Below, piece by piece: positions 35,900-51,387 of a DNA stretch of 64,000 nucleotides (the stretch's first letter is position 1; every line of letters begins with the position of its first letter). The position numbers and the translations under genes are program-made. This DNA comes from Candidatus Parcubacteria bacterium. Lineage in GTDB: Bacteria > Patescibacteriota > Minisyncoccia > Phycocordibacterales > Phycocordibacteraceae. Location: contig JAXDML010000010.1 of the NCBI GenBank assembly GCA_034666125.1, forward strand, positions 150,037-214,036. The letters run 5' to 3'. The notes under the pieces are model-generated. The model was not told where the DNA came from. It searched no databases and worked only from the letters and a program-made list of their open reading frames with translations.

Positions 35900-36502
35900 A
35901 TGATCGCCGTGGACGTGGAAGCGACCGGAATCGACGCCGAACGGGCGTCGATCGTGTCGATAGGCGCCGTCGATCTCGACGACCCCGCGAACCAGTTCTA
36001 TGAGGAGTGCCGGGCATGGGACGGCGCGCATCTTTCCAATGAAGCCCTCGCCATCACCGGCTTCTCGAAGGACGAGATAGGGGAGGAGAGCGGCAAGCAA
36101 ACGGAGGGCGAGCTTGTCCGGAATTTCATCACCTGGGCCATGGACCGTCCGCAGACCCATACGTTCGTCGGACAGAACCCGCGCTTCGACAGCGACTTCA
36201 TCGCGGCGGCCTGCCGCCGCGCCGGCACGGAGTTCCCGTTCGCGTACCGCTCCATCGATACGCATACGCTTTGCTGGAACCATATCGTACAGAGAGGGGA
36301 GCAGCCGCCCGTGGCGAATAAGCGTTCCGCCATCAACCTCGACTATATCCTCCAGTACTGCGGGGTGCCAGCCGAACCGAAGCCTCACAACGCCCTCAAC
36401 GGCGCGTTATCCCATGCCGAGGTCTTCTTCCGCTTGGTCTATACTAAGAAAGTATTACCCGAGTTCCTTGAACATGACATTCCATGGATAAAGACGCAGT
36501 AG
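35900..36502 (+). CDS. DEDDh 3'-5' exonuclease (DnaQ/epsilon-like)
   Basis: Exo I (IAVDVEATG), Exo II (FVGQNPRFDSDF), and Exo III (HNALNGALSHAEVF) motifs. Confidence 0.75.
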   Translation: MIAVDVEATGIDAERASIVSIGAVDLDDPANQFYEECRAWDGAHLSNEALAITGFSKDEIGEESGKQTEGELVRNFITWAMDRPQTHTFVGQNPRFDSDFIAAACRRAGTEFPFAYRSIDTHTLCWNHIVQRGEQPPVANKRSAINLDYILQYCGVPAEPKPHNALNGALSHAEVFFRLVYTKKVLPEFLEHDIPWIKTQ

Positions 36503-37305
36503 GGCAGCAGCCGGCAGGCCCGAAGGAGCAGAGGGGCGGAACGACCGTACCGCCCGTACCGACCCCCGAGCACTCGAACACGCCCGAGCATCACGAGGCG
36601 ATGGGGCGGATCCTGTCGCAGACTATCGAGCGCGGGAAGCAGGAAGTGCCGGACAATCCGTCTCCGCTCGTCTGCAAGCCGCGGGAGCTCGAGAGCTGGC
36701 GCGTGTTCAAGATCATGTCCGAGTTTGTCGAGGGGTTCGAGCTCATCAGGAAATATGGGCTCGCGGTGAGCTTCTTCGGCACCGCGCGTGTGGGCTTCGA
36801 GGAGCATTTCTATAAGGAAGCGACCGACCTCGCCGGGAAGCTTGCGAAGGCCGGCTTCGCGGTCATCACGGGCGGGAGCTCCGGCGTCATGGAGGCGGCG
36901 AACAAGGGAGCGTTCGAAGCGGGCGGCGCATCCGTCGGTCTCAACATACGCCTCGACCAGAACCAGGGACTTAACACGTACCTCACCGACTCGTACACCT
37001 TCGAGCACTTCTTCGTACGGAAGGTCATGCTCGCCTTCGCCTCAGAGGTGTACGTCTTCTTCCCGGGTGGATACGGCACCATGGACGAGTTCTTCGAGAT
37101 AGTCACGCTCGTGCAGACGGGGAAAATACGGAAAGTCCCGATCGTCGTCTTCGGCAAGGAATACTGGGAACCGCTCATCGCCTTCATGCAGCTGAAGTTC
37201 CTCGAAGAGCACGCGGCCATCGACGCTCCCGATCTCGAGCTCTTTTTCGTGGCCGATACGGTGGATGAGGCGTATGAATTCATCACGAAGAACGTGCAGT
37301 GCTAG
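36484..37305 (+). CDS. LOG family protein (cytokinin riboside 5'-monophosphate phosphoribohydrolase-like, TIGR00730). The start is probably an internal ATG near 36598.
   Basis: GGSSGVMEAANKGA and PGGYGTMDEF LOG motifs. The ORF as called overlaps the exonuclease 3' end by 19 nt. Confidence 0.75.
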   Translation: MDKDAVGQQPAGPKEQRGGTTVPPVPTPEHSNTPEHHEAMGRILSQTIERGKQEVPDNPSPLVCKPRELESWRVFKIMSEFVEGFELIRKYGLAVSFFGTARVGFEEHFYKEATDLAGKLAKAGFAVITGGSSGVMEAANKGAFEAGGASVGLNIRLDQNQGLNTYLTDSYTFEHFFVRKVMLAFASEVYVFFPGGYGTMDEFFEIVTLVQTGKIRKVPIVVFGKEYWEPLIAFMQLKFLEEHAAIDAPDLELFFVADTVDEAYEFITKNVQC

Positions 37306-39762: not shown

Positions 39763-39844
39763 TACAACGCACAATATCTGGATCAAATATTTCTGTCTTT
39801 TGTCAAGGCTTTGGGGCTCATTATTGAAAAGTGGGGAGACCCTT
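39763..39844 (+). repeat. 82-bp direct repeat, copy A (partner at 42953..43035)
   Basis: ACAACGCACAATATCTGGATCAAATATTTCTGTCTTTTGTCAAGGCTTTGGGGCTCATTATTGAAAAGTGGGGAGACCCTTA. Differs from copy B by 1 substitution and 1 indel. Confidence 0.9.
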
Positions 39845-40109: not shown

Positions 40110-40214
40110 GTATTGAAGTGTGCCCCGACCGGGAATCGAACCCGGATCATTTCCTGAGAGAGGGAACGCCCTTTCGGGTGGAGTTTTCTAGACTCTTGCT
40201 CTATCCATTGAGCT
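40110..40214 (-). tRNA. tRNA-like gene with a ~34-nt insertion between anticodon stem and T-arm (apparent anticodon AGA); possible intron-containing or degenerate tRNA
   Basis: On the minus strand: perfect 7-bp acceptor (GCCCCGA/TCGGGGC), canonical D-arm (GCTC-AATGGATA-GAGC), anticodon stem-loop AGAGT-CTAGAAA-ACTCC, and a perfect T-arm (CCGGG-TTCGATT-CCCGG). A 34-nt segment with two hairpins (CCC-GAAA-GGG and TTCC...GGAA) sits where the 4-5 nt variable loop should be. Confidence 0.45.
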
Positions 40215-40909
40215 ATCGGGGCACGCTTCAGTACTCAAGATGCTTATGAGATGGGCAGTAGGTCGAAACCTTTTCGGCACACTGCCCAGCCCGTAAGGAC
40301 TGGGTAAATCTCTGGCGAGATTTAGGAAAGGGATCGGGTATTACCTGGTCCTTTTTCCGTTATCATTTCGCTCGCGGATGGTAGTGTCGGGGAACTTGTC
40401 GTTCACCCATTCACGGACATACCTTCCGGTCTTGGCGCTGCGATAAGAGTAGGGAATAAGCCTAGTCGTTAGTCGCGTCTAAACACCCGCATTGTCACTG
40501 CGGGGCCACTTTTCTCGGGAGACCGACCTCCGTCGCCTGCCGCTACGTATCGGCGGGGTATAGTGAGAAACGACACTTGTATCCGATACAAATAGAACCC
40601 ATCCCGACATCTGGCGTAGGCGCTCTCCCTTTCGGGTATCACGCCATACTGGCGAGTGGTCTCTTGAAACCTACGCCAGATGTCGAAACAGGTTCTCTGT
40701 TTCGGGAGAGCATATGAGGGGGACCAACCCCTGTTTATGAAAGTACCGCCCAGCGATTGAGCGTAGCTTTAGTATAACCGAACCGCGCCAAGCTCGTCTT
40801 GGGGATAGGGGTCGCTCCGAAACAGTCCGGCTATAAGGCAAGGGCAAATTGAGCGCTCCTTCTTGGTCCAGGTATTGTGCGATACAGCGATATAAACCGA
40901 GAAGGGAAG

Positions 40910-42952: not shown

Positions 42953-43035
42953 ACAACGCACAATATCTGGAACAAATATTTCTGTCTTTTGTCAAGGCTT
43001 TGGGGCTCATTATTGAAAAGTGGGGAAGACCCTTA
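42953..43035 (+). repeat. 83-bp direct repeat, copy B; overlaps the 5' end of ORF 43000..43530
   Basis: Near-identical to 39763..39844. Confidence 0.9.
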
Positions 43036-46616: not shown

Positions 46617-47066
46617 CTACTTAATTGATAGGTTAAAGATTCTCCTTGTAATCCAAATACAGCGTCCAGTTTTTATAATAACTAAAAAAACAATGGCCAA
46701 GAACATGAACATTTCTACCTTCGGAGATGCGTCTATGTTTAGTACCTCTCTTAGGATCAGAATAATAACTCCAAAGGATATCCAAAAAAGTGCGTTTACA
46801 ATTATATCCATTACAGTTCGAAACGACTTTGTCTTTTTGAAATAAACTAATTTTTCACTGTCGTTAAAAGAGAAAATTATAGCCATGAAAGCCATAACAA
46901 ACCCCAAGAGTCCAATCAGTGACTCAGTCATATTAAGTAAAAACTCGTTGCTTAACGAGGAAGACAAATTGAAACGGAATAAGAAATACGTTATTCCACC
47001 CGCGCATAGAAAAGTGAGTAAGGTATCTATAGGCTGAAAGAATTTTTGATACCAATTCTTTAACAT
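46617..47066 (-). CDS. Small 4-TM membrane protein (middle gene of the 3-gene operon)
   Basis: 149 aa with four hydrophobic helices. ~33% GC. Starts 3 nt after the stop of the upstream 306-aa gene. Confidence 0.55.
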   Translation of the reverse strand: MLKNWYQKFFQPIDTLLTFLCAGGITYFLFRFNLSSSLSNEFLLNMTESLIGLLGFVMAFMAIIFSFNDSEKLVYFKKTKSFRTVMDIIVNALFWISFGVIILILREVLNIDASPKVEMFMFLAIVFLVIIKTGRCIWITRRIFNLSIK

Positions 47067-47069
47067 ATT

Positions 47070-47990
47070 TTATTCACCTATAATACTTAGAAGATCGCCC
47101 CGCTTCTTTTTGTAGGCAGCGCAGATATTTTCGAACATATCTTTCGGGTCAACTTCTCGAGCGTTGTTTAATTTAGTAGTTCTAACTTCGTACACCATTT
47201 TGTCTTTGAGGAGGTCAAAGTCTTGAATTTTTTGTGTCTGAGAGTCCCAGGCTTTGATATTAAAACGATCAAATTGCTCACCGGGGTAGAAACGTCCCAC
47301 ATACCCCTTTAAGTTTTTAAGGAATGTCTTTCGTTCAGTGCCCTTAAGAATCGGCTTCCTGCCGTTCTTTTTTGGTCTTAGTACTAGTTCGATTTCTTCC
47401 AAATCTCCAAAGGAAGACGCAGTCCTGAGGGATGAATAAAGATTCGAGTCCAGATTTTTTATACTGTCGACGTGATTCTTATGTACCATTAGGGAGATTG
47501 ATGTAATATCTCCCATTCTACTAATTTGTCGGAGCGCGTCCTTATTAAATAGAATATTAAAGTATAAGAAAAGTGGATTCTTTACTCCAATATTTACGTT
47601 CTCCATCTTTTCGTTCAGATACTTAGCAAGTGTGCCAATGCGCGGTCCATAAAAGTTATATTCCATAGCTACGATGCCCTTCTCAGGGAAATACACAAAG
47701 TGTGTAGGTATGACCAGACCCTCGCTATCTTTAAGTTTTAGGGGATGAACTTTTGTGTCGTCAACCGACGCGACAGAAGGAAAGTCACTACCTCTCCATT
47801 CGTATAAACTTCCGTAAATTACCCCCTTGCCCGTGTCTTTTACGGTGCAGAATATCTTTCTGTCCCTCTCTCTTTCCCAGAAGATATCTTTTTGATCCAG
47901 TGAACTTAATTCTTTAACAACGTCAACAAAAGTGCCGTTCATAACAGCCGATCGGTAGAAGTAGACCTGTCGCACAACAGTTTCCTTCAT
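47070..47990 (-). CDS. Hypothetical 306-aa cytoplasmic protein (first gene of the 3-gene operon), unknown function
   Basis: No TM and no confidently recognisable catalytic motif. A weak GS..DD nucleotidyltransferase-like pattern (YGSLYEWRGSDFPSVASVDD) does not fit the canonical spacing. Lowest GC in the window. Confidence 0.5.
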   Translation of the reverse strand: MKETVVRQVYFYRSAVMNGTFVDVVKELSSLDQKDIFWERERDRKIFCTVKDTGKGVIYGSLYEWRGSDFPSVASVDDTKVHPLKLKDSEGLVIPTHFVYFPEKGIVAMEYNFYGPRIGTLAKYLNEKMENVNIGVKNPLFLYFNILFNKDALRQISRMGDITSISLMVHKNHVDSIKNLDSNLYSSLRTASSFGDLEEIELVLRPKKNGRKPILKGTERKTFLKNLKGYVGRFYPGEQFDRFNIKAWDSQTQKIQDFDLLKDKMVYEVRTTKLNNAREVDPKDMFENICAAYKKKRGDLLSIIGE

Positions 47991-48315
47991 GAGGCCTTCA
48001 TTTTACCACCAGGGTGAATCTTGTACAGACGGACCCAATGTCAAGCCTTTAAAAGGCTTGTGAGCTCCTTTCGCTTTGATAGAAACTTTGCTTCTATATT
48101 TCCGTGACTGATTTCAAAACACGTTAGGATCTACTTGACCTAAACTAGGCTGTTTGGCCTGGCGTGGTCTAAAAACGCGACAAACATAGAAAACCCGTCA
48201 TCAGGGCGTTTGTCGCGTTATAGGGGTAAACTCCTATAGGGGCTTCGGCCCTACTGGTGGCGGGTTTTGTGTTTGCCCACCTCCCCGCCCCGTCTTACTT
48301 CCCTAGTAAACGAAC

Positions 48316-49368: not shown

Positions 49369-50004
49369 TCACTTGTTTATCTCAAGGAAGATTGTCGCAA
49401 GCAAGTCCATCATGGTGGCAGCCGTAGGTTTAGACTCGGGAGTTTCGGATGCACACGCATTATCTGCCCACAGTCCCTCCTTATTCACTCGTGCTGTTGT
49501 CTCTGCCTCTTTAAACTGAGCCTGGTATTTGTACGGTAAGTTGTATGTATATTCCTGGGCAAACCCTTCCTGGATCATCTTTAAATTAAGGTTAGATCCG
49601 TTTTCAAGAAAAATATATCCAAGTCTCCTATTGTATTTGTCGTAGGTACCCTGGGATGGGTCTGTCTCGACATACACTTTTGCGTCAGTAAGGAGCGCCT
49701 TGGCTCGATTAGAGGCCTCGCGACCAAAACACTCGACCGCTTGAGTTGGATGAACTGTTTCAGGAGTATCTATACCAATGAGTCGGAATGTCTGAACTTC
49801 GTTATCTATGCGAATTTTTACCGTATCTCCATCTACGACGTCAACAACAGAGTAGAGACTGCTAGGTGCTTGGAAGCCTTCCTCAACAGATTGAGTTTGT
49901 TTCGCTACTTCCCCTCCCGATCTATCTGTAAGAAATAGTAAGCCCCCACCAACAAAAAGGATGCCAATGCAACATGCTGTTAATTTTTTGAGAGCCGCAC
50001 TCAT
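49369..50004 (-). CDS. Secreted thermonuclease (staphylococcal nuclease/SNase family)
   Basis: Signal anchor; SNase motifs VVDGDTVKI, FRLIGIDTPE, RRLGYIF, GLW. Confidence 0.75.
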   Translation of the reverse strand: MSAALKKLTACCIGILFVGGGLLFLTDRSGGEVAKQTQSVEEGFQAPSSLYSVVDVVDGDTVKIRIDNEVQTFRLIGIDTPETVHPTQAVECFGREASNRAKALLTDAKVYVETDPSQGTYDKYNRRLGYIFLENGSNLNLKMIQEGFAQEYTYNLPYKYQAQFKEAETTARVNKEGLWADNACASETPESKPTAATMMDLLATIFLEINK

Positions 50005-50019
50005 TCCTAGAGTATATCT

Positions 50020-51015
50020 CTAGGGCGTGTGATTCATGGGTAACCGAAATTCACCCATATCCTCCCCTATCTGATACTGAGTGGCAGAAATAACCTTTAA
50101 GTCCCCCAAATCGAGCATTTTGTGATGGTTAGGACATAGCACGAGCATATTTGATGGGAGGTCTGCACCAGGAAGTCGTTTGGCAATTGGCACAATGTGG
50201 GCTACTTCAGAATAAAGGTTTCCGCTTCTCTGTCTGAAGGTAAATCCACAAATTTGGCATTCGTTTTTATACTTCTCCTTCATCCGACGAACGAGAGATA
50301 CGTTGCGCTTAATAACGGTCACCTTCCTGGCTACAGATTCAGGCACGTCATCCGCATGACGTTGCTGCCATTCGAGTAGCAGTGAATCCTCTTCCTTATC
50401 TCGTGTAAGCGCGTCGACCTCCGCGAGTTCACTTGCAGTGAGGTCTTCCTTCCCACTAATACTATCGAGCAAAGCCACGTCTTTTGCCTTAAGTCCAGGA
50501 GAGTATGCGTCGAAGAATGAATCTAGACTTCCGTAAGTTGCATAGATCCTGTCCAAAGCACCTTCACGTAGACTTACGAAACCCTGAACAACCATCTTGT
50601 CGTCATAGGCTCCTAATTCGCGGATAATCTCAAGAGGAAGCTGAATTGGCCGAAGTTCGTCGAGAAAGAATAGGTATTCCCAGGTTTCTTCTTTTTGCGG
50701 GATATTGCCCCACAGAGCTCTCGCGATCTCGGCGCTCTGCTTTTTCAATATACATTTACCCGTATACACAAAAACTCCTTTTGCGTAAAAAAGAACACTG
50801 TCACCCGGTTGCATTTGATCCCAATAGAAGCGCCTCCCTTCTCCACTTCCCCATATATAAAGCTGGTCTTGTACACCCAGAGCCTGCTCTTCCTCGGTCG
50901 AGAGATATTGATGTATATGGTCACGTGGGTAACCGCTGGCAAGCGTTGCAATAAAGTTTGCCTGCGATGTTTCGTTGCTCCGAGGAGCCAGGTATATCTT
51001 TGGACGTTCAGCCAT
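50020..51015 (-). CDS. HNH endonuclease with N-terminal PUA-like (EVE/ASCH-type) domain, candidate modification-dependent nuclease
   Basis: Start at MAERPKIY. HNH: CQICGFTF..SEVAHIVPIA..N.LVLCPNHHKMLD. N-terminal GDSVLFYAKGVFVYTGK-type PUA-like pattern (fold assignment is inference). Confidence 0.65.
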   Translation of the reverse strand: MAERPKIYLAPRSNETSQANFIATLASGYPRDHIHQYLSTEEEQALGVQDQLYIWGSGEGRRFYWDQMQPGDSVLFYAKGVFVYTGKCILKKQSAEIARALWGNIPQKEETWEYLFFLDELRPIQLPLEIIRELGAYDDKMVVQGFVSLREGALDRIYATYGSLDSFFDAYSPGLKAKDVALLDSISGKEDLTASELAEVDALTRDKEEDSLLLEWQQRHADDVPESVARKVTVIKRNVSLVRRMKEKYKNECQICGFTFRQRSGNLYSEVAHIVPIAKRLPGADLPSNMLVLCPNHHKMLDLGDLKVISATQYQIGEDMGEFRLPMNHTP

Positions 51016-51116
51016 ATTTCCTTGCACAAAGGCTACGCCTGAACCGTAGTATGTCAATCGCCGCTGATTTGAGACAATCTTAAAAACAAAAAGATCACAT
51101 AGCGCGGACACCAACT

Positions 51117-51320: not shown

Positions 51321-51351
51321 CCATTAAAGAAACACCCCGAGCAAGCTCGGG
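51318..51351 (-). terminator. Rho-independent terminator downstream of pyrF
   Basis: CCCCGAG-caag-CTCGGGG. On the minus strand it is followed by TGTTTCTTTAAT. Confidence 0.6.
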
Positions 51352-51387
51352 GCGGCTTCCCTATGAGGGAAGACTCTCTTCTCCGCT

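Follow-up and report, generated by a model that had tools for sequence, protein, structure and literature searches.

The 64,000-nucleotide stretch of a Candidatus Parcubacteria contig analysed here (in full, hereafter the window) carries, at positions 50020..51015 of the minus strand, a gene that probably encodes a single-chain, nucleoside triphosphate (NTP)-independent, modification-dependent (Type IV) restriction endonuclease. Its 331-amino-acid product appears to join a PUA-superfamily reader of modified bases to an HNH nuclease domain through a helical linker. A preliminary description of the window had put the gene forward as a candidate restriction nuclease of this Type IV-like kind, and the proposal gains support from a predicted fold resembling that of the restriction enzyme VcaM4I, from a profile match to the N-terminal domain of Thermococcus gammatolerans McrB (TgMcrB-NTD), and from fusions of the same reader to other Type IV effectors. 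Judged by alignment and model, the protein seems to have those traits of PUA-reader-HNH Type IV enzymes, an already known kind, that can be examined in this way, and for the window itself the main gain is a well-supported annotation for a hypothetical protein. Single-chain enzymes with a PUA-HNH architecture serve as tools for mapping DNA modifications and take part in the arms race between phages and hosts.

50020..51015, minus strand: complete gene for the 331-amino-acid reader-linker-HNH protein (open reading frame and translation; stop codon 50020-50022)
50569..51015, minus strand: residues 1-149, predicted PUA-superfamily modified-base reader of TgMcrB-N type (YTH/EVE-like), from profile, model and weak Pfam EVE matches
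50275..50568, minus strand: residues 150-247, helical linker (DSSP on the model)
50023..50274, minus strand: residues 248-331, HNH (beta-beta-alpha-metal) nuclease domain (Pfam HNH_2, TagI and EcoKMcrA matches)

Domain organisation of the reader-HNH protein

The open reading frame (ORF) list and the translation of the window both give a 331-codon ORF without internal stops at the position first described, and an independent gene call on a JGI contig chose the same ATG for an identical protein. The sequence also matches, at 100% identity, a 'hypothetical protein' that NCBI lists for a Candidatus Parcubacteria metagenome-assembled genome. We found 104 homologs, mostly of 320-345 amino acids, and built the family alignment from 45 sequences, namely the window protein and 44 homologs. 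These 44 begin where the window ATG does, and a longer TTG start at 51114 was therefore rejected on the strength of the homolog starts and the JGI call; the 33 residues it would add are unconserved. The motifs quoted in the preliminary description are present as written, with GDSVLFYAKGVFVYTGK at residues 70-86 and the HNH motif CQIC...AHIVP...PSNMLVLCPNHHKM at residues 252-299.

The C-terminus had been called an HNH nuclease, and the matches place this assignment far above chance. Pfam HNH_2 covers residues 253-305 (E = 7.5e-9, 35.8 bits against a cutoff of 21), Pfam HNH also matches, and the nearest solved HNH relatives by sequence are TagI (PDB 6ghs; E = 9e-12 for the sequence by itself, 3e-19 for the family profile) and EcoKMcrA (PDB 6ghc; E = 2e-11 by profile). 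Residues C252, C255, H272, N288, C293, N295, H296 and H297 are invariant across the 45 sequences, a set that would fit a zinc-stabilised beta-beta-alpha-metal active site. By analogy with solved enzymes, we propose that C252, C255, C293 and H296 form the zinc site and that H272, N288 and H297 are the catalytic and metal-binding residues. The HNH part is 40% identical to an HNH ORF of Haloarcula hispanica pleomorphic virus 4 in a phage collection, this virus being the source of HhiV4I, a G6mATC-/Dam-dependent restriction enzyme (PMC11037411). Weak matches to the PADLOC model 'Type IV methyl-directed restriction enzyme' are confined to the HNH part, as is a match to NCBIfam NF045808 (phosphorothioate-dependent SBD-HNH, ScoMcrA type), which is restricted to residues 237-318 and stays below threshold at 34.4 bits against a cutoff of 180.

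The first ~150 residues are predicted to be a PUA-superfamily modified-base reader, on the three independent lines of profile, structure and weak Pfam matches. TgMcrB-NTD (PDB 6p0f) is matched with E = 7.5e-5 by the family profile and 2.6e-5 by the N-domain profile, over ~130 positions that include the common motifs ENF..T, (Y/I)WG, GD.VLFY, (L/F)W and GY. An AlphaFold2 model built from the 45-sequence alignment has a mean predicted local distance difference test (pLDDT) score of 88.9, with 84-97 in the N-domain blocks. Rather than the unrelated fold that the preliminary description had allowed for, a Foldseek search of the whole chain against PDB returned VcaM4I, an EVE-HNH restriction enzyme, as its top match (E = 8e-8) and TgMcrB-NTD as its second (E = 4e-7, TM 0.67), followed by the EVE-like proteins MJECL36 and PH1033 and then by ASCH and YTH domains. 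Weak Pfam EVE matches occur in 9 of the 45 homologs (best E 0.01). TgMcrB-NTD is a YTH-like domain that prefers N6-methyladenine (6mA) DNA over unmodified or 5-methylcytosine (5mC) DNA and binds RNA poorly (PMC7544203; PMC7680126). Bell et al. found prokaryotic homologs of the TgMcrB-type YTH-like domain hard to tell from EVE domains (PMC7641849), which agrees with our results. The beta-barrel reader first proposed thus holds as to its fold, while its length was overestimated: the domain takes up ~150 amino acids and not ~200, residues 150-247 being helical.

According to DSSP on the model, the linker consists of six helices (150-160, 163-169, 176-186, 193-203, 208-218 and 224-247; pLDDT 76-82), the last of which is long and runs into the HNH domain. 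It is the least conserved region of the 45-sequence alignment and is shorter in haloarchaeal homologs. A hidden winged-helix sensor at this place, as in PUA-wH-HNH enzymes, was considered and ruled out, the linker being predicted as all-helical with no strands; the haloarchaeal relatives, with a shorter linker plus an N-terminal helix-turn-helix (HTH), also count against it. Two of these distant homologs, on haloarchaeal megaplasmids (L121 3734-4915 and L122 3746-4960), have 393-404 amino acids, with an extra N-terminal segment of ~90 amino acids (a LuxR/GerE-type HTH in L122) and a much shorter linker, and so represent an HTH-reader-HNH variant.

Known enzymes, distribution and proposed mechanism

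Comparison with characterised systems shows how each half of the protein relates to enzymes already described, and VcaM4I, TagI and EcoKMcrA bear out the initial view that a reader fused to HNH is a known restriction architecture. The VcaM4I/TspA15I group (EVE-HNH, PDB 6yex), of which Lutz et al. characterised EVE/YTH/PUA-like-HNH enzymes of TspA15I type (PMC6765204), has the same layout, but identity to the window protein is only 10-13% and there is no sequence-level match. The window reader is nearer to TgMcrB-N than to EVE domains, and the HNH domain is nearer to that of TagI than to that of VcaM4I. The linker measures ~100 amino acids, compared with ~30 in VcaM4I, where it is helical and spans residues 148-178 (PMC7897488). 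TagI (SRA-HNH) and EcoKMcrA (NEco-HNH) have the closest HNH domains by sequence, with ~34% identity and the pre-HNH helix within the match; both are Type IV enzymes dependent on 5mC or 5-hydroxymethylcytosine (5hmC), but their readers (SRA and NEco) differ from that of the window protein. TgMcrB combines the reader with an AAA+ GTPase and has McrC as its separate nuclease partner, whereas here the reader is joined directly to HNH with no NTPase; Pfam finds no AAA+ domain in the window protein and thus no McrBC-type architecture. ScoA3V (Sco5330), which has an atypical PUA-like N-domain and an HNH domain, can be likened to the window protein by description only. It is a 'distant PUA'-HNH nicking enzyme stimulated by 6mA, the only HNH fusion of such a kind reported to prefer 6mA, and its close homologs have been reported only in Actinomycetales (Lutz et al. 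2019, PMC6765204).

The reader domain has a set of strictly conserved residues that may line a base-binding pocket. All 45 aligned sequences share W54, W64, D71, W101 and W111, and G55, G70, F75, Y76, F81, L100, Y136, G144 and F145 are near-invariant. In the hidden Markov model (HMM) alignment, W54, W101 and W111 stand opposite TgMcrB W53, W115 and F121 (residue numbers of TgMcrB counted off that alignment). YTH domains, TgMcrB-N and MJECL36 have three conserved hydrophobic residues of the cage in common (PMC8868631), and the cage of YTHDC1 consists of Trp377, Trp428 and Leu439/Met434 (PMC7544203). From the alignment, we infer that W54, W101 and W111 are the cage equivalents, and the invariance of the tryptophans argues for a functional ligand pocket. 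The pocket residues of VcaM4I (Y130, W82 and P24) are not obviously the same as W54/W101/W111. TgMcrB shares 17% identity with the window protein and has Phe at the third cage position where the latter has Trp, and its 6mA specificity cannot be transferred to the window protein.

By analogy with related readers, we consider 6mA and a modified cytosine roughly equally probable as the target base, with a smaller share for other modifications. The former is suggested by the closest solved reader, which binds 6mA, and by the resemblance of the three-Trp pattern to a methyl-binding cage. The latter is suggested by EVE-HNH and SRA-HNH enzymes, which read 5mC and 5hmC, and by the usual partner gene of the family, which is DCTPP1-like (see below), DCTPP1 having been described as clearing 5-methyl-dCTP and further abnormal cytosine triphosphates (PMC4491611; PMC13510388). 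If 6mA were read, the protein would be among the very few single-chain 6mA-dependent enzymes with a PUA-type reader.

The family is patchily spread over Parcubacteria, Saccharibacteria, Magasanikbacteria, Parachlamydiales, Gammaproteobacteria and Solirubrobacterales, with more distant members in Bacillota and Haloarchaea. The neighbours of homologs include serine recombinases, integrases, OLD-like ATPases, PLD nucleases, and RES or NucS proteins, and both distribution and context are transfer-like. The reader itself is also used outside this family; the N-domain profile matched 2364 cluster representatives among 1.84 billion (E <= 1e-3). We surveyed the fusions in 56 N-domain matches whose length departs from the ~325-amino-acid HNH form and found AAA_5 (McrB-type GTPase family) in 26, nSTAND3 in 9, NOV_C in 8, a recognisable EVE domain in 5 and HNH in 4, with GmrSD_N, MrcB_N and DndB in 2 each and Mrr_N, NucS_C, KAP and ParB_N as single cases. 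Bell et al. described fusions of McrB GTPases or PD-(D/E)XK nucleases with YTH-like domains of TgMcrB type (PMC7641849). The HNH part is exchanged as well. In one 366-amino-acid protein (P0097), an MrcB_N (EcoKMcrB-type) reader (E = 2e-53) is fused to a C-terminal HNH_2 region with 46% identity to the window protein across 43% of its length, and a 259-amino-acid protein (P0103) joins Mrr_N to an HNH domain. The reader thus recurs with restriction effectors and the HNH domain with other readers, which is a hallmark of modification-dependent restriction enzymes. In the present family, a TgMcrB-type (YTH/EVE-like) reader is joined straight to HNH; the family is widespread in uncultured lineages, including the Candidate Phyla Radiation (CPR).

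A mechanism can be outlined by analogy with these enzymes. The N-terminal PUA-superfamily domain (1-149) would scan DNA and, by base flipping, bring a modified base from the duplex into a pocket that the invariant W54, W101 and W111 would line, perhaps with W64 and D71. The ~100-residue helical linker would hold the C-terminal zinc-stabilised HNH domain, which, as in VcaM4I and TagI, may dimerise and cut both strands near the modified site. Modified phage or plasmid DNA would then be destroyed on entry, and host DNA that carries no such modification would be spared; because the host lacks the mark, no methyltransferase would be needed. The preliminary description had noted no cognate methyltransferase nearby, and a motif scan of window ORFs of at least 150 amino acids, which is a weak test, likewise revealed no credible DNA methyltransferase in the 64-kb window. 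The sole match to [DNS]PP[YFWH] lies in an ORF antisense to a longer ORF (36484..37305) and without an FxGxG motif.

The MazG-like partner of relatives and alternative explanations

Collections of genomes and metagenomes yielded 36 loci that encode full-length homologs, and a MazG-like gene adjoins the reader-HNH gene in 28 of them (24 of 31 after collapse at 90% identity). The partner lies immediately upstream on the same strand in 23 of the 24 paired members, its stop abutting or overlapping the reader-HNH start; the exception is L006, where it lies downstream on the opposite strand.

L001, L004/5/8/66, L009-L013, L017, L039, L041: partner gene, 116-123 codons (e.g. L001 5654-6004)
L043, L045-L056, L067: partner gene in further loci, upstream of the reader-HNH gene and often overlapping it

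Pfam assigns the partner to MazG-like (PF12643), among solved structures it comes closest to mouse RS21-C6 and human dCTP pyrophosphatase 1 (DCTPP1) (E = 1.2e-17), and the blocks R.W..FH.P, EA.E..E.F.W, ELADV and KY..L are conserved in 23 partner sequences. The likeness to DCTPP1 (RS21-C6) belongs to this partner gene of relatives and not to the window gene. The pairing is the family's most novel lead, and it is not present in the window: a tblastn search with two partner proteins returned nothing at E <= 10 in the 64 kb, either for an intact MazG-like sequence or for a remnant upstream of the gene or elsewhere. The closest full-length relatives (L001 and L039, 57-59% identity) do carry the partner, and the simplest reading is that the window copy lost it, perhaps at island insertion or truncation.

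In the searchable literature, nothing was found that describes MazG paired with Type IV restriction, modification-dependent restriction or EVE domains. Bell et al. reported that MutT homologs adjoin SauUSI homologs, and Jablonska et al. described as 'Group 23' unannotated His-Me finger proteins that are encoded beside MazG genes and are said to have no Pfam entry (PMC5714182). The present family is probably different from Group 23, given that its HNH matches HNH_2. We tentatively raise the possibility, to which we give distinctly less than even weight, that the family is the nuclease half of an undescribed two-gene 'sanitise-and-restrict' module, in which the partner, whose translation is often coupled to that of the nuclease, would destroy, at the triphosphate stage, the very modified nucleotide whose presence in DNA prompts attack by the reader-HNH protein. 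If true, salvaged modified nucleotides could be kept out of host DNA so that self-restriction is avoided, phages could be starved of modified dNTPs, and what the partner enzyme acts on would tell which base the reader recognises; on this view, the Parcubacteria copy would be a solo derivative that tolerates the loss or uses another sanitiser. More broadly, the MazG pairing points to a link between nucleotide-pool cleaning and Type IV restriction that is testable in cultured carriers.

A distant member (23% identity) is found in a cultured organism, on plasmid pSHB26 of Peribacillus simplex (L120, NZ_CP011009.1 61883-70851). A truncated ORF for a 'MazG-like family protein' (73 amino acids) lies directly upstream of it, and its surroundings encode a NucS-type PD-(D/E)XK protein, a RES-domain protein and two DNA cytosine methyltransferases. 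This locus may serve as an experimentally tractable example, though its partner gene is truncated.

The same pairing can be read in favour of genome hygiene or repair. Here, the reader would find a modified base wrongly incorporated from salvage, HNH would nick the DNA to start repair, and in most relatives the MazG/DCTPP1-like partner would rid the nucleotide pool of the dNTP that carries this base, in parallel with MutT and MutM/MutY or dUTPase and Ung. CPR bacteria are commonly regarded as reliant on the salvage of nucleotides, and the window gene lies beside a gene for a secreted DNase. The DCTPP1-like gene is adjacent in 24 of the 31 distinct members and abuts the reader-HNH start in 23, and DCTPP1 has been described as a pool sanitiser for abnormal cytosine triphosphates (PMC13510388; PMC4491611). 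Moreover, the distant PUA-HNH protein ScoA3V is merely a nickase (PMC6765204). We nevertheless regard this explanation as unlikely, in view of the patchy, transfer-like spread, the island of low guanine-plus-cytosine (GC) content and the mobile-element and defence neighbours, which form the pattern of a defence gene and not of housekeeping repair. Elsewhere, the reader is joined to the restriction effectors McrB, GmrSD and NOV_C, and the window copy lacks the MazG partner.

A non-specific or RNA-directed nuclease or toxin, whose PUA-like domain binds modified RNA, by YTH-like reading of m6A, or restrains the nuclease, seems very improbable. Eukaryotic YTH domains and many EVE and ASCH domains do bind modified RNA (PMC7641849), and HhiV4I does not seem to use its PUA domain as a modification sensor. 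However, the closest structural relative of the reader, TgMcrB-NTD, binds DNA and has little affinity for RNA (PMC7544203), the HNH domain falls in the TagI/McrA/HhiV4I group of DNA endonucleases, and the invariant tryptophans point to a pocket with a ligand.

Several points weigh against modification-dependent restriction as the function of the window protein. Taken by itself, the window protein has no Pfam match in residues 1-250, with no EVE, YTH or ASCH domain at E <= 1; it does not reach the gathering threshold of Pfam EVE (PF01878) and is not matched by Pfam YTH (PF04146). The equivalence of the Trp cage rests on a sequence alignment at 17% identity, and the PUA domain of some PUA-wH-HNH enzymes (HhiV4I) was reported not to be the modification sensor (PMC11037411). 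Finally, a copy without the MazG-like partner may be impaired, differently regulated or reliant on a gene outside the window.

The SNase neighbour and the low-GC island

The surroundings of the gene hold the following further features.

49369..50004, minus strand: signal-anchored staphylococcal-type nuclease (SNase) gene, 15 bp downstream of the HNH gene (Pfam SNase, PF00565, E = 1e-26)
51019..51023, minus strand: possible ribosome-binding site AAGGA, 3 nt 5' of the ATG (read off the sequence; weak evidence)
51333..51354, minus strand: terminator-like hairpin of the upstream orotidine 5'-monophosphate (OMP) decarboxylase gene (consensus scan)

The signal-anchored SNase noted at 49369..50004 in the preliminary description is confirmed by its Pfam match and by an N-terminal hydrophobic anchor, a signal that the HNH protein does not have. 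A consensus scan revealed no terminator between the two genes, and they are probably co-transcribed. The functional link implied by that description did not survive, as an SNase homolog occurs near none of the 36 full-length homolog loci, nor in any of the 117 related loci outside the window, even at E <= 10; SNase is not a conserved partner and was rejected as such. Therefore, although the shared strand, the 15-bp gap with no terminator-like site, the match of SNase to the PADLOC candidate-defence model 'SNc+LTD' (E = 4.6e-46) and the position of both genes within the low-GC island would suit a two-nuclease unit, such as a defence or DNA-scavenging operon, we give this idea hardly any credence, all the more so since SNase is anchored and predicted to be extracellular and the HNH protein carries no signal.

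A 370-bp spacer lies 5' of the nuclease gene, followed by the OMP-decarboxylase gene. The hairpin at 51333-51354 ends the OMP-decarboxylase gene, so the nuclease gene opens its own transcription unit, and just downstream of the hairpin the GC content falls from 0.61 to 0.47. The nuclease gene thus stands at the right-hand edge of a low-GC stretch of ~14 kb (roughly 37.4-51.1 kb; GC 0.39-0.52 compared with ~0.60 in the genome), which is a horizontally acquired island. No tRNA was detected in the region by ARAGORN and no bracketing repeat pair was found at the island borders. The independent JGI contig stops ~1.6 kb past the SNase gene, inside the island.

The island is filled mainly by small ORFs without family assignment, and PHROGs and Pfam scans of its other ORFs gave unknown-function or weak matches only. 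A 306-amino-acid protein (47070-47990, minus strand) has weak PADLOC matches to RexA (E = 3.6e-4) and PDC-M67A (E = 1e-5) and matches phrog_10865 (E = 2.5e-8); 3 bp after its gene follows that of a 149-amino-acid protein with four hydrophobic segments (46617-47066, minus strand), an arrangement reminiscent of the RexA/RexB pair of abortive infection. The Rfam LOOT RNA motif (RF03000) lies at 48137-48252 on the plus strand (70.2 bits against a gathering cutoff of 46.4, E = 1e-11), in the intergenic space between the RexA-like gene and a gene for a zinc-ribbon membrane protein. Rfam also recovers a tRNA-like gene of 102 nt at 40121-40222 (minus strand, 56.7 bits) that ARAGORN missed, with a 31-nt insertion at the variable-arm position and an apparent anticodon AGA, which is unusual for bacteria. 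Lastly, a 74-nt direct repeat occurs in two 99% identical copies 3.2 kb apart (39764-39837 and 42953-43026), and intergenic sequence of the island holds four or five occurrences of a GGGTAGGGAAGTCAGG-like motif (39046, 39516, 41736, 42706 and 45259), both of which could be regulatory sites or remnants of mobile elements.

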